From contig NZ_CP011041.1 of assembly GCF_002310835.1 (NCBI RefSeq), positions 2,880,001 to 2,912,000 of the forward strand: a stretch of DNA of 32,000 bases. The letters run 5' to 3'. A program made the translations under genes and the position numbers. Within the stretch, counting starts at the first letter, position 1. The number at the start of each line of letters is the position of its first letter. This stretch comes from Pseudoalteromonas tetraodonis (GTDB taxonomy: Bacteria > Pseudomonadota > Gammaproteobacteria > Enterobacterales > Alteromonadaceae). Shown here one piece after another: positions 7,509-22,627 of this stretch. Under the pieces are notes generated by a model that made no database searches, was not told the origin of the DNA, and was given only the letters and a program-made list of their open reading frames with translations.

Positions 7509-8226
7509 TTTGTACCTCCAGTGCTTTTGTATTTCTAATTTTTGATACATTCATATTAATCAAATGGCGAATCACACCTTGATACATCCAACGTTTTACT
7601 CCCGACAAATTAGTACCCTTTTCAAGATAAAACTCATCAGGGGAATCATAAAGCCCAAAGTCGTCATGAATACCTTCTTTTTGAATATAGGTATCTTGGC
7701 CGCACCAATTTGTGTTTGGTGAAGAGAAACACTTTGTTGCAACACCATAGACACAAAAGTCATCTTTTGCTTGGCTAAATTTCTGCTGTAGTGAGCTTAA
7801 GTATTGCTCATCCAATATAAAGCCCTCTAAGTTTATCCAGCGTCCATCGAAATAAACTTCTACCCAACTATGAATGATGTATTTAGGTGCTAACCAAAAT
7901 ACATAGCTAGGTATAGCCCCTTTTTGTAATTGCTGATCAATGGTAAAACCATGGAAACGACACTGGATACCTAGTCCACGCAATAGCGCCATTAACAGAT
8001 TACCCTTAGTATTACATTGCCCATAACCATCTGCTAGTACATCGCTTGCTGCTATATCATCACTCTTGTTATAGCCAAACATTATTTCATCTTTCACAAA
8101 TTGGTATGCTGCTCCAATTTTGTTGAAATCGTCTAAGCTTTGCCATCCTCGCTGATCGATCAGGGATTGGATATCTTTGTGTTCAAAATTAACGATATTC
8201 GTATTGTTTAAATATTTCTCGGTCAT
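7495..8226 (-). CDS. Transglutaminase-like (cysteine-protease fold) superfamily protein
   Basis: A core Cys context GYGQCNTKGNLLMALLRGLGIQCRFHGF is followed by HSWVEVYFDGRWINLEG. This matches the Cys...His...acid layout of the transglutaminase core. No signal peptide is visible. The 3' end overlaps the czcD start by 14 nt. Confidence 0.7.
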   Translation of the reverse strand: MTEKYLNNTNIVNFEHKDIQSLIDQRGWQSLDDFNKIGAAYQFVKDEIMFGYNKSDDIAASDVLADGYGQCNTKGNLLMALLRGLGIQCRFHGFTIDQQLQKGAIPSYVFWLAPKYIIHSWVEVYFDGRWINLEGFILDEQYLSSLQQKFSQAKDDFCVYGVATKCFSSPNTNWCGQDTYIQKEGIHDDFGLYDSPDEFYLEKGTNLSGVKRWMYQGVIRHLINMNVSKIRNTKALEVQNAQP

Positions 8227-8245
8227 TTTTTATATATCCTTTTCG

Positions 8246-8288
8246 TTGCATACTTATACTACAGACTCTATAGTAACTATAGAATCAA
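8246..8288. promoter_or_regulatory. Divergent promoter region with a MerR-type (CadR/ZntR-like) operator dyad
   Basis: A perfect dyad tctatagt-a-actataga occupies 8267-8283. On the minus strand the layout is -35 TTGATT (8288-8283), a 19-nt spacer containing the dyad, then TGTAGT (8263-8258), upstream of the transglutaminase-czcD operon. On the plus strand TTGCAT (8246-8251), a 19-nt spacer and TAGTAA (8271-8276) lie upstream of cadR. Confidence 0.6.
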
Positions 8289-8305
8289 ATGTCTGGGGGA
8301 AATTG

Positions 8306-8695
8306 ATGAAAATAGGCGAATTGTCTAAAAAATCGGGCTGTTCTATACAAACAATTAGATATTATGAAAGAGAAGGATTACTGTTAAATCCAAACCGTTC
8401 AGAAGGTAATTTCAGGCTGTATGATAGTAAAGCACTTAAACAATTGGAGTTCGTAAAACATTGTCGCAGCCTAGATATATCACTCAATGATATTAAACGT
8501 CTTATCGAATTAAAAAATAAGCCAGAAGAAAGCTGCTCTAGCGTTAATGCATTAATTGATCAGCAACTTGCACTAGTGAATAAACGCATGAAAGAATTAA
8601 GGGCGCTTAAAGCTGAATTACAACAGATGGCTAGTGCTTGTGGTTCGAACAATACTATTGAAGCATGCGGGATCATTAAGTCACTAGATAGTTAA
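8306..8695 (+). CDS. cadR: MerR-family Cd(II)/Zn(II)/Pb(II)-responsive regulator, CadR-like
   Basis: The sequence MKIGELSKKSGCSIQTIRYYEREGLL is a MerR HTH. Cys occurs in PEESCSSVNALID, and a C-terminal pair in ASACGSNNTIEACG, which is the CadR/ZntR ligand pattern. The start is set at ATG 8306 (GGGGGA upstream). The ORF-track extension to 8177 overlaps the divergent gene and was rejected. Confidence 0.85.
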   Translation: MKIGELSKKSGCSIQTIRYYEREGLLLNPNRSEGNFRLYDSKALKQLEFVKHCRSLDISLNDIKRLIELKNKPEESCSSVNALIDQQLALVNKRMKELRALKAELQQMASACGSNNTIEACGIIKSLDS

Positions 8696-8900: not shown

Positions 8901-9221
8901 AACGACAAAATTAGTTGCAGCCGTTAATGCACTAGAGTGTTTAAATTGAAGTTTATTATTGACTCTTCAACGTCTGCTTTACACTCTGAATTTTCGTTAA
9001 TAACTCAAAAGCTAACTTCCGCTTTTGGCTAAGTGAAGTCATAAGGTATTCATTGATGCTAATGTCCGCAATGTCGGAGGAGCTGCCGTTAGCAAATAGC
9101 ATCAAATTATCGTAATATAACTGATTGAGTCTCAGATATTATGATTAAAAAATCATACTTTCATAAAAAGAGAGATTGGCGGCATCCCTTTAAAACCTTT
9201 CAGTCTAAAATGAGATCAATC

Positions 9222-9584
9222 TCAATCATTATGCACAGTCACAAATACTCCACATAGGTTGATCATGGCAGTGGCAAACGGATTATCATTTTTGGTATTG
9301 AGAGAGCCGTCGATAATATTCAAACAAGCACCTTTCTTATGGATGCTTTCAATTGCCTCAAGAATAGATTTTAACGACCGTCCCAAACGGTCGAGGCGAG
9401 TAACAATAACTTCATCACCTTCCCTGATAAAGTCGATGAGTTCCTAAAGCTTTTCTTCATTTCGAATCGAAGCACCAGACTGTTTGCCTTGGAATATTTT
9501 TTCACAGCCCTGAGCGTCCAACTTGGACAGTTGAACATTTAAATCTTGTTCTTTAGTTGAAACTCTTGCAAAACCAACTTTCAT
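9222..9584 (-). pseudogene. Serine recombinase (resolvase/invertase) pseudogene with an in-frame TAG and a 3' truncation
   Basis: The minus-strand translation is MKVGFARVSTKEQDLNVQLSKLDAQGCEKIFQGKQSGASIRNEEKL*ELIDFIREGDEVIVTRLDRLGRSLKSILEAIESIHKKGACLNIIDGSLNTKNDNPFATAMINL... This is the classic resolvase catalytic domain (ARVST, DRLGRS). The TAG is at 9446-9444. The frame ends after ~120 codons, so the C-terminal HTH domain is missing. Confidence 0.8.
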
Positions 9585-9587
9585 ATA

Positions 9588-9685
9588 TACGAAACCTGTA
9601 ACTTTCGCACACCTTAACAATTAAATGAACGAAAGTATATTAAATAAATTTCGTACATGAACGTAATAAAAAATAGAAATTCGTA
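9588..9685 (-). promoter_or_regulatory. res-like array: three imperfect inverted pairs of a TTTCGTA-type half-site directly upstream of the resolvase pseudogene
   Basis: Pair I is tacgaaa (9588-9594) with tttcgca (9603-9609). Pair II is aacgaaa (9628-9634) with tttcgta (9649-9655). Pair III is aacgtaa (9660-9666) with attcgta (9679-9685). Three subsites next to the resolvase start match the classical res organisation. Confidence 0.4.
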
Positions 9686-9713
9686 CACTACGGATAGAAA
9701 ATGAATGACAATT

Positions 9714-9842
9714 CTAACTATAAAGTGACTTAATTATTTCACACGCTTCACTTGTACACGAGCTTGCCATTTGTTGAAGCTCAGCTTGTAGTGCTTTGAG
9801 TTCTCCCATTAGATTGTTAACTAAAGCCAATTTAGCCTGTGT
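9714..9842 (-). pseudogene. 5'-truncated fragment of a second CadR-like MerR regulator (C-terminal ~42 codons only)
   Basis: The minus-strand translation TQAKLALVNNLMGELKALQAELQQMASSCTSEACEIIKSLYS* aligns with the C-terminus of the intact CadR (QQLALVNKRMKELRALKAELQQMASACGSNNTIEACGIIKSLDS*). The frame is closed by TAG/TGA just upstream. The nucleotide sequences are clearly diverged, so this is not a recent duplicate. Confidence 0.7.
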
Positions 9843-10017
9843 CTATCATAAGTTCAAAACTTAAACTTTAGATATAAGCTGAAATTGAGTCAATCGTATT
9901 ACAAATACTCTTATTGATACTGGCTCATTACTTGCACTTTTTCGAGAACATGACCACATGTAGAGAATAATAGGCTAACAGTGGGAAATATTTACACTAT
10001 CAATGTAAGGATTACTT

Positions 10018-10539
10018 ATGAAATACTCAAGATTTGCTGCAATGATCATCACCTCAACCATTGCTATGTTTGTCATGATGTATCTCAACACTTACGCAGT
10101 ATCACATATATGGTTTAGTGAAACGCGTATCTATATGGCGTTGTATATGGGAGCAGGTATGGCAATGATCATGCTGGCCTTTATGCTTGGCATGTACAGT
10201 AACAAGAAGCTCAACATGGCTATTTTTCTATTGGCGACAATACTGTTTGCCATATGTCTTTATCTTGTTCGCTCTCAAAGCACAATTTCTGACACTGCTT
10301 ACATGAAAGCGATGATTCCTCATCACTCCATTGCTATTCTTACTAGTGAGCATTCAACTTTGGAGGATGTACGCGTGCGTGAATTGGCAAATGGTATTAT
10401 TAAAGCCCAACGAAAAGAAATAAAAGAAATGGAATGGCTGATTAAAGATATTTCTGAAAATGGAAAGGTCAGCTCACAAGCTCAGGCTGAGCAACGACCG
10501 CTCCCAAAGTTTGAAGGCACACTGAACAAAGGAGACTAA
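10018..10539 (+). CDS. Membrane protein with three N-terminal TM helices and a C-terminal DUF305-type (CopM-like) repeat
   Basis: The motif MKAMIPHHSIAILTSEH...ELANGIIKAQRKEIKEMEWLI matches the DUF305 signature (PHH ... Q..EI..M..W). Three hydrophobic helices are present, and the second is strikingly Met-rich (YMALYMGAGMAMIMLAFMLGMY). Confidence 0.7.
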   Translation: MKYSRFAAMIITSTIAMFVMMYLNTYAVSHIWFSETRIYMALYMGAGMAMIMLAFMLGMYSNKKLNMAIFLLATILFAICLYLVRSQSTISDTAYMKAMIPHHSIAILTSEHSTLEDVRVRELANGIIKAQRKEIKEMEWLIKDISENGKVSSQAQAEQRPLPKFEGTLNKGD

Positions 10540-10540
10540 G

Positions 10541-11272
10541 ATGACTAAGACAGCTACCCTGTACAGAATGGTCACTGACGAACATATCTGCCCCTATGGT
10601 TTAAGGTCGAAAGATTTGCTGGAGAGGCAAGGGTATGATGTAGAAGATCATAAGCTCACGTCAAGACAACAAGCTGATGACTTCAAAGCTAAGCATGATG
10701 TCAAAACTACGCCACAAACCTTTATTGAAGGAAAGCGTGTCGGAGGATACGATGACTTAAGAGAGTATTTTGGTAAAGATGAAGCAGGTCAAACTGGCAC
10801 AACCTACACGCCCGTTGTAGCCATTTTCTCGATAGCTGCACTTCTTGCTGTCGCATCTCAACATTTTGCTTCCGGCTCATTTATCTCCATCAGAACACTG
10901 ATGCTATTTATAGCTTTTTCAATGACGCTCTTAGCGGTGCAAAAACTGAAAGACCTATACAGTTTCACAAATTCGTTTATTACTTATGATTTACTAGCGA
11001 TGAGATGGATAAGATATGGTTATATTTATCCCTTCATTGAAGCATATGCAGGTATTGGTATGGTTGCCCAACTACAGCCTCTCGCAGTGGCACCATTTTC
11101 ATTGTTTATCGGCACAGTTGGAGCAATTTCAGTTTTCAAAGCCGTTTACATCGACAAACGCCAGTTAAAGTGTGCCTGTGTAGGCGGCGATAGCAGTGTG
11201 CCACTTGGATTTGTATCGCTATCTGAAAACTTATTTATGATCGCGGGAGCATTGATTATGCTGCTGATGTAA
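10541..11272 (+). CDS. Glutaredoxin-like domain fused to a MauE/DoxX-like integral membrane domain
   Basis: The N-terminal ~80 aa have a glutaredoxin fold (ICPYG...TTPQTFIEGKRVGGYDDL) with a monothiol CPYG site. The C-terminal part is a multi-TM domain with a MauE-type CACVGG motif. The start lies 1 nt after the preceding stop (taagATG). Confidence 0.7.
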   Translation: MTKTATLYRMVTDEHICPYGLRSKDLLERQGYDVEDHKLTSRQQADDFKAKHDVKTTPQTFIEGKRVGGYDDLREYFGKDEAGQTGTTYTPVVAIFSIAALLAVASQHFASGSFISIRTLMLFIAFSMTLLAVQKLKDLYSFTNSFITYDLLAMRWIRYGYIYPFIEAYAGIGMVAQLQPLAVAPFSLFIGTVGAISVFKAVYIDKRQLKCACVGGDSSVPLGFVSLSENLFMIAGALIMLLM

Positions 11273-11464
11273 AGGTATAGCTCTATTCGGCGGCCCCTTA
11301 ACTGTTAAGATTAGACCTAGGATGCCAGCCCACACCTTTCTAATTCATATGTAACATTTTTTCTGTCGTACTGGCATCAAGATAACCAGAACTGAGCAAA
11401 CAATCTCAAAGGTTGTACAAAATAACACTAAAGTTTTTTCATTAAGTTTTATTGTTATGCTCTT

Positions 11465-11484
11465 GTGGTGGCTTTCGCCACCAC
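11465..11484. terminator. GC-rich stem-loop (gtggtggc-tttc-gccaccac)
   Basis: A perfect 8-bp GC-rich stem carries a tetraloop. It lies 4 nt beyond the stop of the minus-strand lipoprotein gene. A T-tract (tttatt) follows on the plus strand only, so its strand of action is uncertain. Confidence 0.5.
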
Positions 11485-11488
11485 TTTA

Positions 11489-11839
11489 TTAGTTTTCAAG
11501 TTCCACCATATCTTTCGCTGCAATGTCACCAGACACTAGCTTTACAGTTGCGAAATGATCATTCACAATTTTAGTAATTTGTACCGTTCCTACCTTTTCG
11601 ATAGTGTAGGGATCTTCACCTTCACTCAATACTATTCTTTCATGGAATCTAATAACACTGTATTTTTGCCCAACCTCTGCGCCATGCTTAGCACCAATAC
11701 AGATTAGAGTTCGATTATCAGAACTTTCTACTACCTGACCTCTCATCATGTATTTATGATAAAAAGTGGTATTGGAACAACCCACTAAATATAAACCGAA
11801 TGTAAGCAATAAAAGAGCTTTTATATAGGGTGTTTTCAT
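11489..11839 (-). CDS. Hypothetical lipoprotein
   Basis: A lipobox is present (LLLLTFGLYLVG/CSN). GAGG lies 8 nt upstream of ATG 11839; the ORF-track start at 11842 is a GTG one codon earlier. I do not recognise any family. Confidence 0.55.
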   Translation of the reverse strand: MKTPYIKALLLLTFGLYLVGCSNTTFYHKYMMRGQVVESSDNRTLICIGAKHGAEVGQKYSVIRFHERIVLSEGEDPYTIEKVGTVQITKIVNDHFATVKLVSGDIAAKDMVELEN

Positions 11840-11889
11840 CACTGTTACCTCATTTGACTAACTAATTATCTATACACTTTTTTATGAAT

Positions 11890-12261
11890 TCATTTGTTTT
11901 TCCGGCCAGCCCCCGAAGGTGCTTGATGACAACTCCAAGGCTTATGAACAGAGTTATCTTTGATGTTCTGATCAACAAATTTATAGTAACTTTCTTTAGT
12001 ATGTGTCCACCAATCATCATGAACATCTGCGCCATACTTACGGATTACCTCCTCAATCCCATCAAGGCTTACGTTTGCGGCATCATAGGCAAGGTGTATT
12101 TCACCTTCTTTGATGTTGTAACTAACTTCATCTATACCAAAAAGCTGATCTATTTCTTTTACTAACTCGTCACAGCTTTCTTCTGTGACATTGCTAAGCT
12201 TTAGGTTTCGAACAACTAAATTTTGCTCTTTAACGCCAACTCTATGATTTAAATCGCTCAT
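11890..12261 (-). CDS. Small cytoplasmic protein with an HMA-like (ferredoxin-fold) N-terminal half that lacks the CxxC site
   Basis: The pattern VVRNLKLSNVTEESCDELVKEIDQLFGIDEVSYNIKEGEIHLAYDAANVSLDGIEEVIRKYG resembles a beta-alpha-beta-beta-alpha-beta HMA fold without CxxC. The C-terminal part (HDDWWTHTKESYYKF...PWSCHQAP) is unrecognised. GGAG lies upstream, and the gene starts 10 nt after the preceding stop. Confidence 0.45.
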   Translation of the reverse strand: MSDLNHRVGVKEQNLVVRNLKLSNVTEESCDELVKEIDQLFGIDEVSYNIKEGEIHLAYDAANVSLDGIEEVIRKYGADVHDDWWTHTKESYYKFVDQNIKDNSVHKPWSCHQAPSGAGRKNK

Positions 12262-12271
12262 AATTTTTCTC

Positions 12272-12694
12272 CTAATGTTTGTGTGAATGCTGTTGATTGC
12301 TATCTTTCATTTCTTCCATTTTACGGTTCATCTGCGGCATCATGTTCCCCATCATTTCTAAATGATGTTCAGCCATCTTGATTTGTTGATGCATTGGCAT
12401 TTCTTCCATGTTTTTGTGCATGGATTGCATCATCTTCATCATTGAACGGTGATGTTCAACCATCATCTGCTGTTGCTTTTCAGGATCTTTTTCAGTTTTA
12501 ATGGCATGGACTTCCTTTTTCATTTCCATCATCTTTTTGTGCATTTCTCCCATGTTCTCATGTGGTATTGCCATGCCTTGATGCATATCAGCTTTGTTCG
12601 CACCTTCATGCTTATGCTCATTGTTTTGGGCAAATGAGCTAGTGGTTATAAGTAGTGAACTAATAAATAAAATTGATTTAGTTAACGTTTTCAT
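12272..12694 (-). CDS. Secreted Met/His-rich protein (putative periplasmic Cu(I)/Ag(I) binder)
   Basis: A signal peptide is present (…TTSSFA/QNNEHKHEG). The mature part is dominated by MxxM, HxxM and MM motifs (MHKKMMEMKKE, HHRSMMKMMQSMHKNMEEMPMHQQ, HHLEMMGNMMPQM). The start overlaps the upstream ICMT gene by 17 nt. Confidence 0.6.
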   Translation of the reverse strand: MKTLTKSILFISSLLITTSSFAQNNEHKHEGANKADMHQGMAIPHENMGEMHKKMMEMKKEVHAIKTEKDPEKQQQMMVEHHRSMMKMMQSMHKNMEEMPMHQQIKMAEHHLEMMGNMMPQMNRKMEEMKDSNQQHSHKH

Positions 12695-13343
12695 GATTTT
12701 TACCTTCTACACTTTTATTAAAATTTGGGATCCAACTTGGTGTCGATTCCATATACCTGTGGTACTCCGAACCAAACTCAGCAATCGCTTGTGCTTCTTC
12801 GCGTTTCGCTAGCTTGACGTAAACAACGACTAAGATCGGAAACATCGCAAGTGTTGGGATTGTCGGCCACTGCAATAAAAAGCCGAACATGATTAGAATG
12901 AAAGCTACATACTGTGGGTGGCGACACCTTGCATACCATCCAGTTGTAGCCAATTGATGATGTTTTTGCGCGTGATGCAATACATTCCATGCTGAAGACA
13001 ACATAAAGAAACCTGCAACAATTAACACCATACTCACTATATGAAATGGGTCCCAATGGGCATCACCTTGAAATCCAAAGAAAGTATGTAATAAATGCCC
13101 ATTTTCATGCGCAAAGAAATTTACTTCTGGATAGGTCTCCGTCAGCCACCCCGACAGAAAATAGATAGTTAAAGGAAAGCCATACATTTCAGTAAATAGG
13201 GCAACAATAAAGGCAGAGAACGCGCTTAGACTTCTCCAATCAGTTGATGTTTTTGGTTTGACAAAACTAAAGGCAAAAAAGATAAAAATTGCTGAGTTCA
13301 GTATCACCATTGACCATAAGTCATAATCATATGTTTCATTCAT
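12678..13343 (-). CDS. Isoprenylcysteine carboxyl methyltransferase (ICMT/PEMT-like) family integral membrane methyltransferase
   Basis: The protein is multi-TM and carries the family signature GWYARCRHPQYVAFILIMFGFLLQWPT...REE...EFGSEYHRY. The likely start is ATG 13343 (ATGAATGA overlap with the DUF2933 stop). The ORF track begins one codon earlier at a GTG. Confidence 0.8.
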   Translation of the reverse strand: MNETYDYDLWSMVILNSAIFIFFAFSFVKPKTSTDWRSLSAFSAFIVALFTEMYGFPLTIYFLSGWLTETYPEVNFFAHENGHLLHTFFGFQGDAHWDPFHIVSMVLIVAGFFMLSSAWNVLHHAQKHHQLATTGWYARCRHPQYVAFILIMFGFLLQWPTIPTLAMFPILVVVYVKLAKREEAQAIAEFGSEYHRYMESTPSWIPNFNKSVEGKNHENVN

Positions 13344-13671
13344 CACTGCTCTCCTTTTTATGTGATTCCTTACGTGCCTTTTCTAACCCTTGTATGTAGC
13401 CATCGCGATAGGCTGCATTTTTATCCGTGAGTTCTTGAAAGCTCTCTTCCTTTTTTTCATCAGGCGCATGTGAATGATCGTGACCATGTTTACCATGACT
13501 GCCATGCATAAATACGTGCATCAAGGGGCATAGCAATAAAATCAAGTAGGGAAGAAATTGCAGCATATGTTGACCATGCTCAAGCACTAAGAAGTAGGTC
13601 ACTGCGGCAATAAGTGCCAGTGCAGCCCAGCCTGTAGGTGTTGACCAAAAATTAGGGTGTTGATTTTTCAT
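13336..13671 (-). CDS. DUF2933-family small membrane protein with a His-rich segment
   Basis: Two TM helices are followed by LLLCPLMHVFMHGSHGKHGHDHSH, which is the pattern I associate with DUF2933. A charged C-terminal tail follows. Confidence 0.65.
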   Translation of the reverse strand: MKNQHPNFWSTPTGWAALALIAAVTYFLVLEHGQHMLQFLPYLILLLCPLMHVFMHGSHGKHGHDHSHAPDEKKEESFQELTDKNAAYRDGYIQGLEKARKESHKKESSDE

Positions 13672-13680
13672 ATTGCCCTC

Positions 13681-14034
13681 CTAAACGACTTTTAAGACAC
13701 CGCGATACATTTGCATCTGACAGTGAAACTCATGCTCTCCCGGTGATAAGTTCAATAGGGTAATTTGAGTAATTTCATTTAATTTAAGCTGTTCGCTTAT
13801 ATCCAATGAAGGAATAAGCATTGTTTCAGCGCAGGGGGATTGATCTTTGCGCATAAACTTCAGAGTGACAGGTTGGCTAGCAGACACCTGAATTGAGGAT
13901 GGGGAATACACACCATCCCTCACTTCAATGAGTACTTCATTACCTTGAACGATTGTTTTATTGGGTTTATATAGCCAAAACCACCAAACAATCAGCGCGA
14001 TTAACATTAAGCCTAATAAGTTAATAACCATCAT
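13681..14034 (-). CDS. Membrane-anchored cupredoxin-like domain protein
   Basis: An N-terminal TM anchor (LLGLMLIALIVWWFWLY) is followed by a ~90-aa beta-rich domain ending in PGEHEFHCQMQMYRGVLKVV. This is the H...C..M..M pattern of small cupredoxin-like proteins found next to copper ATPases. Confidence 0.7.
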   Translation of the reverse strand: MMVINLLGLMLIALIVWWFWLYKPNKTIVQGNEVLIEVRDGVYSPSSIQVSASQPVTLKFMRKDQSPCAETMLIPSLDISEQLKLNEITQITLLNLSPGEHEFHCQMQMYRGVLKVV

Positions 14035-14045
14035 TGTGATTCTCC

Positions 14046-16379
14046 TTAATGCTCTTTTGCTTTAAAAAAGCGAAGTCGATTTGCATTTGACACTACAGTC
14101 AATGACGAAAACGCCATTGCAGCACCTGCAATTACAGGGCTAAGCAGAATGCCAAAGAAGGGATATAGAACCCCCGCAGCAAAAGGAATCCCGGCTACGT
14201 TATAGACAAACGCGCCAAACAAGTTTTGTTTGATATTTCGTAAAGTAGCTTTGCTTACCGCTATGGCATCAGCAAGGCCATGAAGTGAACCACGCATTAG
14301 GGTAATGTCAGCACTTTCGATAGCTACATCAGTCCCTGTGCCTATGGCGAAGCCAACATCGGCTAACGCTAGCGCAGGAGCATCGTTGATGCCATCTCCT
14401 GTCATACCAACAATTTCGCCGCCTTCTTGTAGCTCTTTCACCTTGTTGGCTTTATCTTCTGGCAGCACTTCAGCAAGAAACTCACTAATACCCACTTTTT
14501 TAGCTACGGCGGCAGCGGTTTCCTTGTTATCACCCGTTAACATGATGACGCGTATACCATTAGCCTGAAGCCGTTTGATAGCAGAGATTGAGTCTGACTT
14601 GATAGGATCTGCAACAGCAATGATTGCTGCAAGTTCACCATCTACAGCAAAGTACATAGGTGTTTTGGCTTCTTTGGCTAAAGACTGTGCTTGTTCAACA
14701 AAGCCTGTGAGGTCTATGCCTTTTAACTTCATTAGTTTATCGTTTCCGAAAAGCAGGGCTTTGTTGTTGCAGCTTGCTTCTACACCAAAACCCGTAATGG
14801 CGTTAAAGGCTTCAATTTTTAGTAACTCAATATCCTGATCTAACGCACTTTCAACAATCGCTTGCGCTAAAGGATGCTCTGAGCCGCTTTCTAAACTTGC
14901 TGCAAGCTGTAGTACGTCTTTTTCGTCAGTAGCTTTTGCTAAAATAATATCGGTTACCTTAGGTGCCCCTTCAGTAATAGTGCCCGTTTTATCTAAAATC
15001 ATGGCAGTGATTTTAGAGGCGGTTTGCAGTGCCTCACCGTTGCGAATAAGCACTCCGGCTTCTGCTGCTTTTCCTACTCCCACCATGACAGACATGGGTG
15101 TTGCCAAGCCTAAAGCACACGGGCAGGCAATAATAAGCACAGTAGTTGCTGAAACGATGGCAAAAGCAATGGCTGGCTCAGGTCCAAAGTTAAGCCATGC
15201 TAGCGCACTTAACACAGAGGTGATCATCACGACAGGTACGAAAAAAGCTGAAATAACATCGGCCAAACGGCCAATCGGCGGTTTCGAATTTTGTGCTCGT
15301 TTCACCATATTGATGATCTGTGCAAGCGCCGTGTCTTTACCAACGCGTGTGGCTCTAAATAAAATCATGCCTGATTTGTTCAAAGTACCTGCGACAACCT
15401 CATCTTCTTCAGCTTTTTCAGCAGGCATAGGTTCGCCTGTCAGCATGGACTCATCAATAGAGGTGTGTCCTTCCAATACCACGCCATCGACGGGAATTTT
15501 TTCACCCGGTTTTACCTTCACAATATCGTTAAATAAAACCTGCTCAATACCTATCTGAACTTCTTTGTTGTCACGAACCACGGTTGCTGTTTTGGCTTGC
15601 AAGCCGATAAGACGTTTAATGGCCTCAGAGGTTTTACCTCTGGCTTTGATTTCTAATGCTAAACCTAAATCAATTAAGCCAATGATCATGGCGGTAGCTT
15701 CAAAATAAACATGCCGTGCCATCAATGGAACAGCGTCAGGTGCAAACACGACAACCATCGAATACAACCAAGCCGTGCCTGTTCCTAAAGCAATTAGGGT
15801 GTCCATATTGGCTGAATGATTTTTGAAGCTCTTCCATGCTCCTACATAGAAATGCTTGCCTGAAAAATACATAACACCAAAAGTTAAAATGCCTACAACC
15901 AACCAAGAAATTCGTTCAAGGTTTGTTTCAACCGTCATTTCTCCAACTACAATGCTGTAGATCATCAAAGGAACGCCGAGTGAAAGGGCAATAAACGTAT
16001 CGCGCATTAGCTTTTTGTAATATGCAAAATCCGCAGCCTCTTTCTCATCAAGCGCATCTGTTGCTGAGCTATCATCAATTGGCTTCGCGTTATACCCCAC
16101 TGACTCAACAGCTTTGATCAACTCTTTTGTTTTAGCTGTCCCATAAACTGTTACTGTCCTATCAGCAAAATTCATTTCCGCACTGACGACTCCAAGAGTT
16201 GCCTTCAACGCCCCTTCAATTTTGCCTACACAGCTAGCACACCCAGCACCTTCAATGATAAGCTGTTGGTTATGTGATACTTTCTCCAACGTATTCTCCT
16301 TACTTTTACACGAAGAGGATTGAGCTTTTGCCTGACAGCAACAGCCTGATTCAGTTTTTATATTTGTGTTAGTAGCCAC
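14046..16379 (-). CDS. copA: Cu(I)/Ag(I)-translocating P1B-1-type ATPase
   Basis: One HMA domain (GAGCASCVGKIE) is present, together with TM6 CPC (ACPCALGLATP), DKTGT and GDGINDAP. TM7 has N-x6-YN-x4-P (NLFGAFVYNVAGIP) and TM8 has M-x2-SS-x5-N (MAFSSLTVVSN), which together diagnose the Cu(I) subclass. The start is GTG 16379, with AGGAGG 7 nt upstream. Confidence 0.93.
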   Translation of the reverse strand: MATNTNIKTESGCCCQAKAQSSSCKSKENTLEKVSHNQQLIIEGAGCASCVGKIEGALKATLGVVSAEMNFADRTVTVYGTAKTKELIKAVESVGYNAKPIDDSSATDALDEKEAADFAYYKKLMRDTFIALSLGVPLMIYSIVVGEMTVETNLERISWLVVGILTFGVMYFSGKHFYVGAWKSFKNHSANMDTLIALGTGTAWLYSMVVVFAPDAVPLMARHVYFEATAMIIGLIDLGLALEIKARGKTSEAIKRLIGLQAKTATVVRDNKEVQIGIEQVLFNDIVKVKPGEKIPVDGVVLEGHTSIDESMLTGEPMPAEKAEEDEVVAGTLNKSGMILFRATRVGKDTALAQIINMVKRAQNSKPPIGRLADVISAFFVPVVMITSVLSALAWLNFGPEPAIAFAIVSATTVLIIACPCALGLATPMSVMVGVGKAAEAGVLIRNGEALQTASKITAMILDKTGTITEGAPKVTDIILAKATDEKDVLQLAASLESGSEHPLAQAIVESALDQDIELLKIEAFNAITGFGVEASCNNKALLFGNDKLMKLKGIDLTGFVEQAQSLAKEAKTPMYFAVDGELAAIIAVADPIKSDSISAIKRLQANGIRVIMLTGDNKETAAAVAKKVGISEFLAEVLPEDKANKVKELQEGGEIVGMTGDGINDAPALALADVGFAIGTGTDVAIESADITLMRGSLHGLADAIAVSKATLRNIKQNLFGAFVYNVAGIPFAAGVLYPFFGILLSPVIAGAAMAFSSLTVVSNANRLRFFKAKEH

Positions 16380-16390
16380 CCTTTTTCCTC

Positions 16391-16804
16391 CTATGCTTTT
16401 TTAATTTGCTCAAAGTTTTCGATGAGATGACAAACCATGTTTGCAGTCGGTGCTTTGTCTTCCATTTCTTCCCATCGAGAAAGCGCAGAAGACATTTTTC
16501 CTCGAAGTGCCAACATTGCTTGAAACTGCTTTTCTGTTTCTTCAAGCCGCTCTTTGATCAGGCTTCTGACTAATGGGCACGCACTTTTACCATCTTCAGA
16601 TTCATTAATAATTTCCTTGATATCTGCAACGGAAAAACCAAGGTTTCTGGCACTTAAAATGAATTTAAGTCTCGATACTTCTTTATTCGAGTATGACTTG
16701 TAGCCGTTCACTGACTTAGCAGGTTTTAACAATCCTAATCTGGTGTAATAGCGCACCGTATCAGCAGTCGTTCCAAGGCTTTTTGCCAGCTCCGCAACTT
16801 TCAT
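16391..16804 (-). CDS. MerR-family metal-responsive transcriptional regulator (atypical ligand pattern)
   Basis: The HTH is MKVAELAKSLGTTADTVRYYTRLGLL. A Cys occurs in GKSACPLVRSLI and a Cys-His pair in TANMVCHLIE, instead of a CueR-type C-x7-C loop. The start is set at ATG 16804 (GAGGAG upstream); the ORF track starts two codons earlier at a GTG. Confidence 0.8.
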   Translation of the reverse strand: MKVAELAKSLGTTADTVRYYTRLGLLKPAKSVNGYKSYSNKEVSRLKFILSARNLGFSVADIKEIINESEDGKSACPLVRSLIKERLEETEKQFQAMLALRGKMSSALSRWEEMEDKAPTANMVCHLIENFEQIKKA

Positions 16805-16847
16805 ATTCACTCCTCAGTTTTTTAGCTAAGTTTGTACTCTCATCTTC

Positions 16848-16878
16848 AGCTTAGACCTGTGTCTAAGACACAGGTCAA
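16848..16878 (-). promoter_or_regulatory. MerR-type promoter with a 19-bp spacer and a perfect 10-3-10 dyad
   Basis: The minus strand reads TTGACC (16878-16873), then tgtgtcttagacacaggtc (19 nt), then TAAGCT (16853-16848). The dyad gacctgtgtc-taa-gacacaggtc spans 16854-16876. The promoter lies ~45 nt upstream of the MerR start. Confidence 0.7.
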
Positions 16879-17103
16879 GTACTAATTCTAGTGAATAAGC
16901 TAAAAACTAATTTTTTGGTAAAAGAGAAATCTCGGTCAAAATCGACAGCATTAAGTACTGTAAATAGCAATAGTTTGAGCATGTTCATCATGCCTCCAAA
17001 AAATATTGTGCTAATTGTTCAAAACGGTTGGTAATTTAAACCAATCAGTAAATCGTTTTATTTTTGATGGGACTGGCGAAAAAAAGGCGCACTGATCCCG
17101 TGA

Positions 17104-17526
17104 TTAGCCAATAATTGGTGGACGATAAAGTAAGAGATGGATACCAGATTTTGGTAGGGGTATACGCTGTAGAATTAGCTCAGAATGAATATTGCAAATA
17201 CCTTCCTCTTGCGCTTGCACAAGATAGGCATTTAAATGAAAGCTTGTACAAAAACCGCCTTCACAACAAACACAATCACCAGCTTTACATTTTTCACAGT
17301 CTTCATCACCATGACGGTTTTTAGAATCTTGCGAATTTTCAGTGTGATAGTGACTATTGTCATTCATTGATTGATGATGCATATTTTTGCTTGGTTGTAT
17401 AATATGCGTGTCGGAAGATCCATTTTGATGTTCTTCACAATTCATTGGTTTAGCAATAGCAAAGCCATGCTGCGTAAGCAACAGAGTAATTACCACTATT
17501 TTAAACCACTTGAAAAGTCCAAACAT
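17104..17526 (-). CDS. CzcI-like paralog: secreted or anchored His-rich, Cys-cluster protein
   Basis: The 140-aa protein has a signal or anchor (IVVITLLLTQHGFA) and a His-rich stretch (NMHHQSMNDNSHYHTEN...RHGDED). Its Cys cluster is CEKCKAGDCVCCEGGFCTSFHLNAYL, and its C-terminal tail is LLYRPPIIG. The Cys cluster, H-L and RPP tail are the same layout as the ORF at 694-1065. Confidence 0.5.
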   Translation of the reverse strand: MFGLFKWFKIVVITLLLTQHGFAIAKPMNCEEHQNGSSDTHIIQPSKNMHHQSMNDNSHYHTENSQDSKNRHGDEDCEKCKAGDCVCCEGGFCTSFHLNAYLVQAQEEGICNIHSELILQRIPLPKSGIHLLLYRPPIIG

Positions 17527-17613
17527 TTTAATTCCTTATTTATCACCTACAATATTAGCCACTTTATAAAAATAATTTTATGATCTTGATCAACCTTTGA
17601 ACTAAAACCTAAA

Positions 17614-17670
17614 CTTTTTACTTTTTACTTTTTACTTTTTACTTTTTACTTTTTACTTTTTACTTTTTTA
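17614..17670. repeat. Heptanucleotide tandem repeat (CTTTTTA) with 7 perfect units plus one 8-nt variant
   Basis: Counted directly: units start at 17614, 17621, 17628, 17635, 17642, 17649 and 17656, and a final ctttttta occupies 17663-17670. The repeat lies 88-144 nt upstream of the ATG of the 17104-17526 gene. Confidence 0.95.
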
Positions 17671-18110
17671 AACAGCTTTAACTTCACAAGTATAAAAGGG
17701 GTGTCTAATTTATACTCATGAGATTGAAGCCAAGCATGAGCACCATTAAAAGAAATAAAAACCCTACGCTCATAACTAGGTATTGAGTAATGGATCATTT
17801 TTCCAATTGTTCAGCTTTAAGCGCAGTACTTTGCAACAATCGGTTCTATCCCGGGCACATCCAATTCCCGTTCATCAAAAGTGATAAAATGGCCTATTGT
17901 ACGTCTTTCAATGGCGATGTTTTTTGCCTTGACTCTTTAACCTTAACCATTCGCCAACTTTACTTCTTAGCTGATATTCCACCTTGATAGGTATACACCA
18001 GACTGGCACCGATTGAAAACAAGAAGTAGCTTACTATTACTGCTCTTAGTTCTTTCCAAAAAAACTATTAGCTAGGCCTTTCCTAACATAACTAAAATGG
18101 TTTAAATCCC

Positions 18111-18148
18111 AAAAAACGAAAGCTACCATCAATATAGTTGCGGTAGCT
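18111..18148 (-). terminator. Possible weak rho-independent terminator after pcoB
   Basis: The minus strand reads agctacc, a 14-nt loop, ggtagct, then ttcgtttttt, about 30 nt after the pcoB stop. The stem is short and the loop is long, so this is tentative. Confidence 0.35.
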
Positions 18149-18178
18149 CTCATCAAGTCAATATAGTATTTCTTCATA

Positions 18179-19039
18179 TCAGAGCCAGAACTTGATACCT
18201 GCAACAAAAGCAGTATCACGAGTACTTTGCCCATTTAACTTCGCAAAGTCGGCTGTATTACCAAATTTATTTGTCCACTCAACGCCAACATAGGGAGCAA
18301 ACTGGCGGGTAAACTCATAACGAACCCGAAAACCAATAGCACTGCTAGACAAGCCACTACCAAGGTTATTTTGGACGTCATCCTTACCGTAAAGCGTCAA
18401 CTCTGCTCGTGGTTGAACAATTAACTTTTGAGTAAGTAATAGCTCATACTCAGCTTCGATCGAAAATGCACTATTACCTTGCTCTCCTAAATACGCAGTC
18501 ATATCAATTTCAAACCAGTAGGGGGCTAGACCTTGTAAACCAAAAGCTAGCCATTTGCGGTTTTCACCTTCGTTATTGTAATCAAGTCGAATACCGACTT
18601 GTGTATCCCAATAAGCAGATATTGCGTGGCCCCATAGAAAATCTGTTTGGTTCTCCTCTAAATTACCTTCGCTAAAATCTCCTTCAGTTTTGATGACTAA
18701 TCTATCAAAAGTAGTGCCATACCATGCCTGAAAGTCAAAAACACCTGCGTTTGTTTGCTCATTATATTCAAGACGATCCCCTAGTAGCGCGTAAAATGAA
18801 TGCTCATCTGCCAAAGTCAGTCGTTTGTCGCTACTGAGTGCATAAGGACCTTCAGTCAAAGTTGTACCTGCTGCATAAGCATGGGGGTCTCTAGCATCTT
18901 TAGGTGCATCTCCACCTTGTGCTTGCATTTTAGAATCACCCATCTCAGTCATCTCATCTTTTGCAGATACAGATACACTTATAAGGGGCAAACCTATTAA
19001 TAATAGTCTTAACGTATTGGTTAGTATTAATTTTTTCAT
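18179..19039 (-). CDS. pcoB: Copper resistance outer membrane protein CopB/PcoB
   Basis: A signal peptide and an N-terminal Met/Asp region are followed by beta-barrel sequence typical of the family (LGDRLEYNEQ..., FDFQAWYGTTFDRLVIKTEGD, C-terminal F-W-L). An ATGA overlap links it to the pcoA stop. Confidence 0.88.
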   Translation of the reverse strand: MKKLILTNTLRLLLIGLPLISVSVSAKDEMTEMGDSKMQAQGGDAPKDARDPHAYAAGTTLTEGPYALSSDKRLTLADEHSFYALLGDRLEYNEQTNAGVFDFQAWYGTTFDRLVIKTEGDFSEGNLEENQTDFLWGHAISAYWDTQVGIRLDYNNEGENRKWLAFGLQGLAPYWFEIDMTAYLGEQGNSAFSIEAEYELLLTQKLIVQPRAELTLYGKDDVQNNLGSGLSSSAIGFRVRYEFTRQFAPYVGVEWTNKFGNTADFAKLNGQSTRDTAFVAGIKFWL

Positions 19040-20859
19040 GATACAACTACCTCTCTAAACATACCTGCATCCATGTGGAATAATAAATGGCAATGCCATG
19101 CCCAGCGACCTACGTCATGAGGTGTTGTTAAAAAACTAATTCTTTGCGCTGGTTGTACAGGGATAGTATGGCGACGAACCTGTACATCACCTTTTTCATT
19201 CTCCAAATCGCTCCACATACCATGCAGGTGCATGGGATGTGTCATCATTGTATCGTTTTGTAAAATAACTCTTAAACGTTGATTATGCTTCATGTGAACT
19301 GGCGTGCTTTTTCCAAATTCCAAGCCATCAAATGACCAGCTATAACGCTCCATGTTTCCAGTTAAATGTAATTCAATTTCAGCCTCTGGCTCTTGCTGGT
19401 TTGTAATTCCCTCAAGAGAATGTAAATCTGCAAGTGTTAAAACACGGCGTCCATTTTTACGTAAACCTATACCGGGATCATCAAGGTTTGTTCTAGGCAT
19501 ATCAACACGCATATCAACAGAAGCTCCATACTCTGTTTTTGCATGACGCACTTTAGTGCTAGCAACAGCTAATGGGTTTTTAGTCATTCCATGTTTACTA
19601 TGATCCATTGCCATCGCTCCATGACCCATTGCACTATGATCCATTTTATTAGAATTCATGCCCGACATGTCTGCCATACCTGCCATCGCGGAATGCTCAC
19701 CACCTTGGGCCATATTCCCCATCATATCTGTCATCGTTAACCATTCAACGGGATCTAGAGCAGGTACTGGTGCATCAATATTAGGTGCCATTGATAAAGT
19801 ACCTTTAGCATAACCTGAGCGATCCATGCTTTGTGCAAAAATCGTATATGCATCATTTTTTGGCTCGACAAGTACATCATAAGTTTCACCGGGACCAAAT
19901 CTAAATTCATCTACTGTCACAGGTTCAACATTTTGTCCATCAGCTTGTACAACTGTTAACTTCAGCTCAGGTATTCTTACATCAAAAAACGTATTGCTAG
20001 AACCGTTAATAAATCTAAGCCTAACCTTTTCGCCAGCTTTAAACATTCCACGCCAGTTTGTCAAAGGCGCACAACCATTCATTAAAAAAGTCATTGCAGA
20101 TGCTGATAAGTCTGCAAGATCTGTAGGGTTCATTCTCATTTTATTCCACATTTCCCGGCGTTGTAGCGCATTTGAAACGCTGCTATTTGAAATGTCATCA
20201 AAAAACTCTGGAACAGTAGGTTGATTAAAGTTAAATACATCGCTCTGTACTTTTAACTTGCGGAACAAATCCATTGGGTCATCATCAGTCCAATCAGACA
20301 ATTGGATAACATGCTCATTGTCAGCACTAATAATATCCTTTTCTCTTGGCTCAATAATTAATGCGCCGTACATACCTGTCATTTCTTGAAAGCCACTGTG
20401 TGAGTGATACCAATATGTGCCGCTTTGTTGCAGCTTAAATTTATAAACAAAGGTTTCACCCGGCATTATACCTTTAAAGCTAATACCCGGTACGCCATCC
20501 ATTTGATACGGAAGAATGATCCCATGCCAATGAATTGAACTCGGCACTGATAATTTATTAGTTACCCTGATAGTAACGTCATCACCTTCTCTGAGGCGCA
20601 AGGTAGGAGCTGGTATTGAGCCATTGATTGTTGTAGCCATTCTTACAACACCTGTGAAGTTTACGGGTGACTCATCTATCACCAGATCTATTATTTCTCC
20701 ACTTAGTTCGGGCACAGTACCTGTTATTGTTCCAGCCACTAAAGATGAAGCAGCATGAAGAATGCTTGGAAAAGCAGCTAATATACCGCCAGCAGCTAAA
20801 CCTTGTACAAAGCGTCTACGCGGTGTAGAAATTTGATGTAATGGATCTTTAATTCTCAT
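19036..20859 (-). CDS. pcoA: Copper resistance multicopper oxidase CopA/PcoA (Tat-exported)
   Basis: A twin-arginine signal is present (TPRRRFVQGLAAGG). MCO copper-site motifs are HWHG, YWYHSH, HPMHLHG and HCHLLFHMDAGM. A Met/His-rich insert is also present (MMGNMAQGGEHSAMAGMADMSGM...). Confidence 0.93.
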   Translation of the reverse strand: MRIKDPLHQISTPRRRFVQGLAAGGILAAFPSILHAASSLVAGTITGTVPELSGEIIDLVIDESPVNFTGVVRMATTINGSIPAPTLRLREGDDVTIRVTNKLSVPSSIHWHGIILPYQMDGVPGISFKGIMPGETFVYKFKLQQSGTYWYHSHSGFQEMTGMYGALIIEPREKDIISADNEHVIQLSDWTDDDPMDLFRKLKVQSDVFNFNQPTVPEFFDDISNSSVSNALQRREMWNKMRMNPTDLADLSASAMTFLMNGCAPLTNWRGMFKAGEKVRLRFINGSSNTFFDVRIPELKLTVVQADGQNVEPVTVDEFRFGPGETYDVLVEPKNDAYTIFAQSMDRSGYAKGTLSMAPNIDAPVPALDPVEWLTMTDMMGNMAQGGEHSAMAGMADMSGMNSNKMDHSAMGHGAMAMDHSKHGMTKNPLAVASTKVRHAKTEYGASVDMRVDMPRTNLDDPGIGLRKNGRRVLTLADLHSLEGITNQQEPEAEIELHLTGNMERYSWSFDGLEFGKSTPVHMKHNQRLRVILQNDTMMTHPMHLHGMWSDLENEKGDVQVRRHTIPVQPAQRISFLTTPHDVGRWAWHCHLLFHMDAGMFREVVVS

Positions 20860-20886
20860 TTTACTCTCCGAGGTTTGACCAATAAA

Positions 20887-21357
20887 TTAGTGTGACCAAT
20901 GAATGTGCTTAATTTTCCATTCACCGTTTTGCTTTTCGAGAACCATTGTTTCCATCCCTTGATAATCACGTTCTTCACCATTGTAAGTACCTTTAGTTTG
21001 ACTACGCGAGGCAGAGATAGCTGTATTTCCAAGTATCGTCACTTGATGTTCAAGTGTGTCGCTCTTCATCGCTGCTAAATACTTCATATCCGACAACATA
21101 TGATGATGAGCATATTCATCAGCGCTCCTTTCAACGCGGCCTCCCTCGAAAATGGTGACATCATCCGCTAACTGCGCTCTAGCCTGTTTTTGATTGCCAG
21201 TTTCAAGTGCTTGATGAAATGCCAAAACAACTTTTGCGGCTGGTGTATCTACACCTTTAAACAATCCTTTGTCTTTATTCTTATCACCATGAGCGTTTGC
21301 TGCGAAACTAAACGTCATTAATAAAACGAGTAGGATATTTATTGTTTTCATTTTCAT
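20887..21357 (-). CDS. Secreted NTF2/SnoaL-like (DUF4440-like) protein
   Basis: A signal peptide (LLMTFSFAANA/HGDKNKDKG) precedes a ~130-aa alpha+beta cone-like pattern ending in EKQNGEWKIKHIHWSH. The family assignment is by resemblance only. Confidence 0.5.
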   Translation of the reverse strand: MKMKTINILLVLLMTFSFAANAHGDKNKDKGLFKGVDTPAAKVVLAFHQALETGNQKQARAQLADDVTIFEGGRVERSADEYAHHHMLSDMKYLAAMKSDTLEHQVTILGNTAISASRSQTKGTYNGEERDYQGMETMVLEKQNGEWKIKHIHWSH

Positions 21358-21372
21358 TTTCTCTTTTAGGTT

Positions 21373-22269: not shown

Positions 22270-22279
22270 ACCGCCTATT

Positions 22280-22627
22280 TTAGTGAACCATAAAGCCGAA
22301 GCTATGTTTCATTTTATGACCATCGTTACCTAAGAAGGTTACATCCACAGCATAGTTTGCAGGAGCTAATTTAGGTAGTTTCCATGTAAATTTGCTAGTA
22401 GCGACTTTAGAAGGCTCGAATCCAAATTTAAATTCTTCGCCTTGTTTATTGGCCAATGAAACTTTTACAACCCGTACCTCTTTGGTGAACACCAAAGTTA
22501 ACTCTTCTGGAGGATTCATTAGCATTGCATTATCAGCAGGCACACTTTTTTCAAGATGCACATGCGCAAATACCGCACTACTAAAAACGACACTGATTAC
22601 GGTTAAAAATTTAATTAATGTTTTCAT
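22280..22627 (-). CDS. copC: Periplasmic copper-binding protein CopC/PcoC family
   Basis: A signal peptide ends in ...AVFA, followed by the mature N-terminus HVHLEKSVPADNAML. This is the His1-x-His Cu(II) site pattern of CopC/YobA domains. The protein is 115 aa and beta-rich. Confidence 0.85.
   Translation of the reverse strand: MKTLIKFLTVISVVFSSAVFAHVHLEKSVPADNAMLMNPPEELTLVFTKEVRVVKVSLANKQGEEFKFGFEPSKVATSKFTWKLPKLAPANYAVDVTFLGNDGHKMKHSFGFMVH

Follow-up and report, generated by a model that had tools for sequence, protein, structure and literature searches.

The 32,000-nucleotide stretch of the Pseudoalteromonas tetraodonis genome analysed here (contig NZ_CP011041.1, positions 2,880,001 to 2,912,000; the window) encodes, behind a MerR-type promoter, a regulator and seven further genes: a copper-exporting ATPase, a cupredoxin, a DUF2933 protein, an ICMT-like membrane protein, a Met/His-rich secreted protein, an HMA-like protein and a small lipoprotein. 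Coordinates are window positions; the genes, all on the minus strand, were taken from an open reading frame (ORF) listing and its translations. The order merR-copA-cupredoxin-hypothetical (DUF2933)-ICMT has been described as a 'core cluster' on genomic islands, with Alteromonas, Pseudoalteromonas, Vibrio, Simiduia, Salinimonas, Cycloclasticus and others listed as hosts (Cusick et al., 2021; PMC8478169). The Alteromonas copA genes are copper-induced, and no function was assigned to the accessory genes (PMC8478169). As judged from sequence, the present operon is a Pseudoalteromonas copy of this widespread copper-efflux operon. The original prediction, made from the DNA letters alone, had supposed that similar gene strings exist elsewhere without a described function; the published core cluster confirms the first part, and the second still holds. 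What is added here is the homology of the cupredoxin to CupA, the near-invariant DUF2933/ICMT-like unit, the invariant putative ligands of its two proteins and a case against C-terminal methyl-esterification; neither the CupA homology nor the obligate DUF2933/ICMT pairing was noted in the published account (PMC8478169).

The promoter/operator (16848-16878, minus strand; TTGACCTGTGTCTTAGACACAGGTCTAAGCT) consists of a -35 hexamer TTGACC and a -10 hexamer TAAGCT separated by a 19-nt spacer, which holds a perfect 10+10 bp dyad (GACCTGTGTC-tta-GACACAGGTC) with its halves 3 nt apart. This is the MerR-type arrangement of hexamers 19-20 bp apart with the dyad inside the spacer, and the pattern matches once in the window, where none is expected (100 shuffles). 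Of 29 related loci, 25 have the architecture TTGACCTGTG-N7-CACAGGT-N-TAnnnT ahead of merR, and 13 exact matches to the promoter pattern occur amongst the loci fetched for the comparison described below. The promoter precedes merR itself, and the regulator is therefore the first gene of its own operon; transcription is predicted to read through merR and the seven genes downstream. A standard sigma-70 scan gave no convincing internal promoter (as expected, it also misses the promoter with the 19-nt spacer), and an Rfam scan of the window gave 0 matches.

The genes are tightly packed, the junctions from merR to the HMA-like gene being +11, +11, +9, -8 (-11 if the ICMT-like gene starts at its GTG), -17 and +10 nt, and a GGAG-type Shine-Dalgarno sequence lies 5-10 nt upstream of every gene of the operon (gaggag for merR). 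The lipoprotein gene follows the HMA-like gene after 50 nt from its ATG, or 47 nt from a GTG, and probably closes the transcription unit. Four nt past its stop codon, a terminator scan detected a GC-rich hairpin (11465-11484; GTGGTGGC-tttc-GCCACCAC) with a T-run on the plus strand only, which is the likely operon end. These results bear out much of the original prediction: its 19-bp-spacer promoter with perfect dyad and its gene string agree with the sequence and with Pfam and NCBIfam matches, and its junction lengths (11, 11, 9, overlaps of 8 and 17, and 10) and lipoprotein gene 50 nt downstream agree with the ORF coordinates.

The merR gene (16391-16804, minus strand) encodes 137 aa from its ATG, within an ORF that opens at a GTG at 16810. 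Its product matches Pfam MerR_1 (65 bits) and MerR-DNA-bind, and scores far under the cut-offs of the NCBIfam equivalogs ZntR, MerR, CadR and CueR, reaching 67 bits against the cut-off of 147 for CueR (TIGR02044). The conserved residues are C76-P and C125-H126, the single C-terminal C125-H126 taking the place of the C112/C120 loop of CueR. By these matches the regulator is a MerR-family protein of the heavy-metal type, outside the CueR equivalog. Downstream, copA (14046-16379, minus strand) starts at a GTG and encodes a 777-aa protein with the CPC-x6-P, N-x6-YN-x4-P and P-x6-M-xx-SS-x5-N motifs of transmembrane (TM) helices 6, 7 and 8 and a single HMA domain (45.9 bits) with an N-terminal GCASC. 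It also matches the E1-E2_ATPase and Hydrolase families and the hidden Markov model (HMM) of copper ATPases TIGR01511 (613 bits, cut-off 397). The predicted protein is a P1B-1 Cu(I)/Ag(I)-exporting ATPase, that is, a Cu(I) pump, for which the original prediction had correctly stated that all P1B-1 Cu(I) signatures are present.

The cupredoxin gene (13681-14034, minus strand) encodes a 117-aa protein with an N-terminal TM helix followed by a single domain (Pfam Cupredoxin_1, 90 bits). A single-sequence search of the PDB matched the pneumococcal chaperone CupA (2MRY/4F2E, E 3.6e-8) and the CopA metal-binding domain (4F2F, 3e-5) with the ligand motifs aligned, and a profile of 21 orthologues strengthened both matches (CupA E 9e-23; N-terminal domain of pneumococcal CopA 5e-16). 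The CupA ligand set C68, C105, M107 and M109 (SPC ... CQMQM), which gives the cupredoxin-like fold its Cys...Cys-x-Met-x-Met ligands, is invariant in the 21 orthologues. On this evidence the protein is a homologue of CupA, the membrane-anchored Cu(I) chaperone of Streptococcus pneumoniae. Its N terminus is a conserved hydrophobic helix followed by YKPNK, which fits an N-out/C-in anchor; the domain is therefore read as a probably cytoplasm-facing Cu(I) chaperone for CopA and not as a periplasmic electron carrier. A role as periplasmic redox partner is accordingly unlikely. In the two closest Pseudoalteromonas genomes (L002 and L003, 13177-13344) a 168-nt partial second copy of the cupredoxin 3' end lies about 2.3 kb beyond the lipoprotein gene and is 93% identical to window positions 13681-13848; the window differs at that place.

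Next in the operon stand DUF2933 (13336-13671, minus strand; 111 aa) and the gene for the ICMT-like protein (12678-13343 from the ATG, or to 13346 from the GTG, minus strand; 221-222 aa with five predicted TM helices). A scan with one genome per species found at least 541 ICMT-like loci, of which 80 were fetched; their neighbourhoods were mapped by iterated HMM searches with eight window proteins, and presence counts are given over 81 loci. The fetched loci come from Gamma-, Beta- and Alphaproteobacteria, Nitrospirota, Acidobacteriota, Chloroflexota, Gemmatimonadota, Bacteroidota and Actinobacteria, with 58-98% identity in the ICMT-like protein (69-98% amongst the top 120 database matches). 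In 79 of the 80 independent loci, across at least eight phyla, the ICMT-like gene is immediately preceded by DUF2933 on the same strand, often with an overlap of -4, -8 or -11 nt. Looked up in reverse, from DUF2933, an ICMT/PEMT gene is directly downstream in five of six families. By these comparisons the two form a near-obligate, translationally coupled gene pair.

The original prediction had proposed to examine this co-occurrence, with loss of the ICMT-like gene from beside the ATPase in related islands to count against it. The gene is instead kept beside copper ATPases, a P1B ATPase being present in 68 of the 81 loci, and the comparison supports the view of one conserved, copper-linked gene unit. 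The P1B-1 signature is found in 62 of the 66 full-length ATPases beside the pair, and two are of the CPH type; in loci that have no ATPase, CusCBA-like or multicopper oxidase (MCO)/CopB genes often flank the pair. The remaining genes are less constant: of the 81 loci, MerR is present in 38, the cupredoxin in 38, the Met-rich protein in about 36, the HMA-like protein in 42 and the lipoprotein in 10. Nor is the order of the genes fixed: it is, for example, DUF2933-ICMT-ATPase-MgtC on the Acinetobacter plasmid pALWED2.1 and Met-rich-DUF2933-ICMT-ATPase in Betaproteobacteria. Comparative evidence thus places the functional core of the accessory set in DUF2933 and the ICMT-like protein, with the Met-rich, HMA-like, cupredoxin and lipoprotein genes as lineage-variable add-ons. 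The coupling of DUF2933, ICMT and Met-rich genes first read from the window stands as far as the overlaps go; across the loci DUF2933-ICMT is conserved and the Met-rich gene variable. On plasmids, matches to the ICMT-like subfamily came from 274 records, of which Acinetobacter accounts for 70. A tblastn search of plasmids with the short DUF2933 sequence returned 12 records and is too insensitive to count partnerless DUF2933 genes.

Both proteins of the pair are strongly constrained. DUF2933 matches PF11666 at 77.4 bits (cut-off 21) and has the two-TM hairpin of that family, modelled by AlphaFold2 (AF2) as helices H12-31 and H33-56 (pLDDT 73) and followed by a variable, charged, His-rich tail. 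Across the 80 loci the near-invariant residues are E31, H32 and H35 in the short loop, P41, C48-P49, M51, H52, M55, H56, H59 and H62, within the consensus YFL-x-EH-R-x-H-...-LP-YLLLL-x-CP-L-MH-x-FMHG-x-HG-x-H that precedes the tail. Counts of Lys and Arg place the N terminus and the tail inside (N-in/C-in) and the EH..H loop outside.

The ICMT-like protein scores 29.1 bits against PF04140 (cut-off 24) and 27.9 bits against PEMT, its residues 116-207 match Ma-ICMT (4A2N, E 8e-6), and the top Foldseek matches of its C-terminal-half model have the shared ICMT/sterol-reductase fold. All 80 loci keep the cofactor motif R142-H143-P144-x-Y146 and E183-E184 unchanged, and H143 and E183/184 match the His and Glu that contact S-adenosylmethionine (SAM) in RhlM, Ma-MTase and Tc-ICMT. 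Score, structural match and invariant motif together place the protein in the ICMT family. It falls well below the true ICMT/Ste14 equivalog (NF040696, 54.7 bits against a cut-off of 160) and matches the LmtA model weakly (29 bits against 325). Further residues invariant in the 80 loci are N17, S18, D36-W37-R38 and, in TM2, T52-E53-M54-Y55, together with a His cluster (H80, H84, H97 and H102) in a predicted periplasmic loop. Lys and Arg counts put loops 29-38 and 121-146 and the C terminus inside, and the acidic, His-rich loop 68-102 outside. Archaeal Ma-ICMT is an N-out, five-TM protein, and the predicted topology agrees with it. Putative metal ligands are thus invariant in both proteins of the pair, and the ICMT-like protein has an intact SAM motif.

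A sister clade (P0363, P0382, P0357 and P0351), about 36-42% identical to the ICMT-like protein, keeps TEMFG(F/I)PLT and has an extra N-terminal TM helix and no His cluster. CzcN was considered as the family of the ICMT-like protein and rejected: the 27% identity covers just 123 residues of the C-terminal half, and czcN has no DUF2933 gene in front of it. By this comparison CzcN is only a distant relative.

Other genes recur around the pair. In 17 related loci the cupredoxin and DUF2933 genes are separated by a P-II-like gene (PF00543, E 3.5e-11; e.g. L015:8306-8680), which the window lacks, and in Pseudoalteromonas rubra (L003) about 330 nt are inserted at this junction. A dedicated FtsH paralogue is directly downstream of the pair in L088-L090 (e.g. 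L088:5883-7769), followed by MCO and CopB genes, and a 669-aa FtsH-like protein (e.g. L045:2691-4700) recurs near the pair in seven scanned loci; these genes hint at membrane-protein quality control under copper stress. A helical Cys/His protein (about 152 aa; L091:5326-5784, L013:14000-14464), which matches nothing in Pfam, recurs in 16 loci.

Downstream of the pair, the Met/His-rich gene (12272-12694, minus strand) encodes a 140-aa protein with a signal peptide ending SFA|Q and no Pfam, NCBIfam or PDB match. Its family shares the signal peptide and a core DPxx(R/Q)xx(L/M)(L/M)xxHxxxMxxxM, with the family-wide form (D/N)PxxRxxLLxxHxxxMxxxM, and homologues adjoin the pair in about 33 of 79 loci; in Gammaproteobacteria they are downstream of it, in Acinetobacter and Betaproteobacteria upstream of DUF2933. 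The protein is predicted to be a periplasmic Cu(I)/Ag(I) binder; it is not SilE/PcoE-type by homology, the resemblance being compositional only. The HMA-like protein (11890-12261, minus strand; 123 aa), which is cytoplasmic, has a conserved C-terminal D-x-N-xxx-N ... P-W-S-C-H, with motif variants PWSCH/PHCCN and an invariant C111. Its family profile reaches the HMA domains of CopZ and ATP7B weakly (E 1e-4 to 1e-3). An HMA/CopZ metallochaperone assignment was rejected, as the protein has no CxxC and scores 27.6 bits against 91 for the CopZ models; at best it appears HMA-like in fold. The lipoprotein (11489-11839 from the ATG, or to 11842 from the GTG, minus strand; 117 aa, lipobox LVG|C) has no Pfam or NCBIfam family match and is poorly conserved.

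The reading favoured here is of a copper-efflux operon that includes a copper-binding DUF2933/ICMT-like membrane methyltransferase acting on a membrane amphiphile; taken as a whole, its chances of being right or wrong are evenly balanced. The metal-bound regulator would switch the operon on; the membrane-tethered CupA-like domain would collect cytoplasmic Cu(I) at the membrane and hand it to CopA; and the secreted Met-rich protein would buffer or receive Cu(I) in the periplasm. DUF2933 (an N-in/C-in hairpin) and the ICMT-like protein (N-out, five TM helices) would form one copper-binding complex, with a His/Glu-rich site on the periplasmic face, made of the EH..H loop of DUF2933 and H80/H84/H97/H102 of its partner, and a Cys-Pro/Met/His ladder next to the cytoplasmic SAM site. 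Copper occupancy could then gate or enable SAM-dependent methylation. The acceptor may be a membrane-resident amphiphile (a lipid, or a lipid-linked carboxylate or phosphate), by analogy with RhlM and LmtA, in which case methylation would rid the membrane of an anionic group that binds copper. RhlM of Paraburkholderia is an ICMT-family enzyme that methyl-esterifies the carboxylate of rhamnolipids (PMC11069360). No other bacterial enzyme of the ICMT family has a substrate with genetic support in the literature searched. This precedent and the weak LmtA match are the reasons for favouring a membrane amphiphile as acceptor. A fungal N-terminal His methyltransferase of lytic polysaccharide monooxygenases was dropped as an ICMT-fold precedent, as its source paper does not call the enzyme ICMT-like. 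A narrower form of the proposal, a two-subunit copper-dependent methyltransferase in which copper at the ladder and the periplasmic His cluster gates catalysis or activates a nucleophile (a copper-bound thiolate or imidazole, or an anionic lipid head group), is tentative and may well be wrong.

Several points weigh against this picture. One locus (L064) has, on six-frame reading, the ICMT-like gene without DUF2933; another (L091) has DUF2933 without an ICMT-like gene, in the order DUF2933, 152-aa Cys/His protein, CopA; and in the CHASRI island of Salmonella a DUF2933 gene is annotated near pcoG with no mention of an ICMT gene (PMC12582456). No natural DUF2933-ICMT fusion was found amongst 120 DUF2933 homologues, nor amongst ICMT-like representatives with a longer N terminus, where either the start had been mis-called or, in a sister clade of about 40% identity, an unrelated TM helix is added. 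For the ICMT-like protein the AF2 model, built on 16 close homologues, has pLDDT <50 in the N-terminal half, so that only the fold of the C-terminal half was used; because of this, the His cluster is positioned solely by the positive-inside rule. That the two proteins assemble in one copper-binding membrane complex, an association drawn from synteny only, has about even odds, and an amphiphile as acceptor is a guess at lower than even odds. The regulator has no CueR ligand loop, so that its specificity for copper is only putative. Full-text literature searches turned up neither biochemical nor mutant data for DUF2933 or the ICMT-like subfamily, including any mutant phenotype under copper.

A different division of labour can be drawn from the same residues. 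DUF2933 and the Met-rich protein could be a MerF/MerT-MerP-like relay that carries or presents copper from the periplasm, across or into the membrane, to the sensor, the chaperone or CopA, with the ICMT fold mainly structural or metal-binding and methyl transfer secondary or lost. The DUF2933 hairpin of two TM helices, which has an intramembrane Cys-Pro and ligands on either face, would suit such a role, as would the secreted Met-rich partner adjacent in about 40% of loci, the lineage in which DUF2933 is next to CopA with no ICMT-like gene, and the fact that the N-terminal, non-catalytic half is the most conserved part of the ICMT-like protein. However, the invariance of R142, H143, P144, Y146, E183 and E184 in 80 of 80 loci is hard to explain without catalysis, and an importer in an efflux operon needs a rationale; a relay is rather unlikely.

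The original prediction had itself proposed a methyl-esterification step within a membrane and periplasmic machine, and one version of it, in which the ICMT-like enzyme methyl-esterifies the C terminus of DUF2933 or the Met-rich protein, can call on ICMT family membership with an intact cofactor motif, on the translational coupling of the three genes, and on the predicted position of DUF2933 TM2 and tail on the same side as the active site. Yet the C termini of DUF2933, the Met-rich protein and the HMA-like protein vary in length and sequence amongst homologues; no protein of the operon has a conserved C terminus, and this makes C-terminal methyl-esterification unlikely. The Met-rich protein is exported, away from the cytoplasm-facing SAM site, and the CupA-like cupredoxin is probably cytoplasmic. 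Bacteria are not known to have CaaX prenylation, which also counts against this version. Methyl-esterification of a protein C terminus is, moreover, too narrow an expectation for the ICMT type, as the rhamnolipid carboxylate of RhlM and the LmtA match illustrate. Overall, it is quite improbable here.

It is equally doubtful that the pair serves not resistance but copper delivery to cuproenzymes, or another membrane process, and travels with copper ATPases that feed cuproprotein assembly. In Bradyrhizobium diazoefficiens, bsl7992 (DUF2933), bll7991 (ICMT) and bll7990 (hypothetical) form a direct target of the microoxic regulator FixK2 (PMC9104804). This operon adjoins a SAM synthetase gene and lies outside copper islands (PMC9104804); the pair is therefore not confined to resistance islands, and two of the fetched loci (L052 and L073) carry it with no metal genes within 9 kb. 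Against this, most loci are plainly resistance islands (MCO/CopB, CopCD, Cus, DUF411), many of them plasmid-borne. A SAM synthetase gene beside the pair, as in Bradyrhizobium, was found in none of the 80 loci. Finally, the patchy distribution of the lipoprotein, Met-rich and HMA-like genes might mark the accessory genes as co-transcribed hitch-hikers irrelevant to copper, which is highly improbable given that the pair keeps 58-98% identity and its place beside copper ATPases in at least eight phyla, and that its invariant residues are typical copper ligands.

The operon lies within a multi-metal island, in which CDF transporters, a czcCBA-like RND system, a second MerR gene, a decayed serine recombinase and DUF305 and glutaredoxin-MauE (Grx-MauE) genes precede it; beyond it are genes for a CopL-like protein, copB/multicopper oxidase, copCD, a PepSY/ferredoxin-reductase protein, cusCBA and DUF411. 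Positions 9878-22390 are 96.5-97% identical to a Pseudoalteromonas shioyasakiensis contig. The recombinase (resolvase/invertase; 8956-9830, minus strand) is split over at least three frames, its N-terminal piece being MKVGFARVSTKEQDL, and at 9714-9830 a 38-aa fragment duplicates the C terminus of the MerR gene at about 8306-8695. Recombinase remnant and MerR fragment resemble a scar left by recombination at the border of the copper module, the P. shioyasakiensis identity starting at 9878. The second MerR (8177-8695, with a likely start near 8306) has a Cys-rich C terminus (CGSNNTIEAC), is divergent from a CDF transporter and a transglutaminase-like gene, and is probably a Zn/Cd-type sensor.

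Convergent with the operon, the membrane DUF305 and glutaredoxin-MauE fusion genes (10018-11272) are adjacent, with the stop of the first at 10539 and the start of the second at 10541, and homologues of each recur near the operon in seven related loci. On the other side, between the operon promoter region and copB, a Cys/His-rich 140-aa protein (17104-17526) has a weak CopL match (E 0.006), and a similar protein recurs in five related loci. Between copC and cusA, at 22652-25191, are a 611-aa PepSY-TM/2Fe-2S/FAD/NAD-binding membrane reductase, a possible cupric or ferric reductase, and a PepSY-TM partner. A 607-aa protein with the same FAD/NAD/2Fe-2S domain set adjoins the DUF2933/ICMT pair in an unrelated metagenome contig (L088:1149-2972).

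Plasmids spread copper/silver resistance islands amongst bacteria of marine, soil and clinical origin, and a methyltransferase-like membrane gene is found in these islands again and again. One ICMT-like subfamily is here tied to a hairpin protein rich in copper ligands and to Cu(I) pumps; a vague annotation thereby becomes a defined two-gene target. If the narrower, copper-dependent form of the proposal is true, bacteria of at least eight phyla would use an enzymatic, SAM-dependent methylation in copper detoxification, and there would be a first functional handle on the ICMT-like genes of metal operons known since CzcN and NccN. The CupA homology extends the Streptococcus chaperone to Gram-negative copper ATPases with ordinary HMA domains.

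Amongst known systems, the closest is the core cluster of Alteromonas macleodii CUKW/KCC02 (PMC8478169), which has the same gene order. In megablast comparison the A. macleodii plasmids are 75% identical in DNA from copA to ICMT, and they have two extra downstream genes, for a 136-aa protein (with a 17-nt overlap) and a 123-aa protein, like those described here; the present operon differs in belonging to another genus and in its additional lipoprotein gene. As in the CueR-copA system of Escherichia coli, a MerR-family activator, a 19-bp-spacer promoter with an internal dyad and a P1B-1 Cu(I) ATPase occur together. Unlike that system, the regulator is co-transcribed with its target, lacks the Cys112/Cys120 loop and has Cys where CueR has Ser77, and the operator half-site is ACCTGTG, where that of CueR-copA is CCTTCC. 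With CupA-CopA of S. pneumoniae the operon shares a cupredoxin-fold protein, here with a predicted membrane anchor, with a Cys...Cys-x-Met-x-Met Cu(I) site, encoded beside a P1B-1 CopA. The pneumococcal CopA, however, has a cupredoxin-like N-terminal domain, whereas CopA here has no such domain and carries the classical HMA CxxC; in addition, the present host is Gram-negative and its regulator is MerR-type, in contrast to CopY in pneumococcus.

For the ICMT-like protein, two comparisons are relevant. ICMT-like genes have been noted in metal operons since czcN and nccN, which were described in the 1990s, and one lies between cusF and copF in Pseudomonas putida. CzcN and NccN of Cupriavidus metallidurans are likewise ICMT-family membrane proteins of unassigned role inside a metal-resistance operon, but they are without the His-cluster N-terminal half and are tied to the RND Zn/Co/Cd systems (czc/ncc). 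RhlM and LmtA, a lipid A phosphate methyltransferase, are bacterial ICMT-fold membrane enzymes with the same SAM-contacting His and Glu and with membrane amphiphiles as acceptors; they differ in that the ICMT-like gene here has no biosynthetic gene context, and the DUF2933 partner and metal-ligand clusters are unique to its subfamily.

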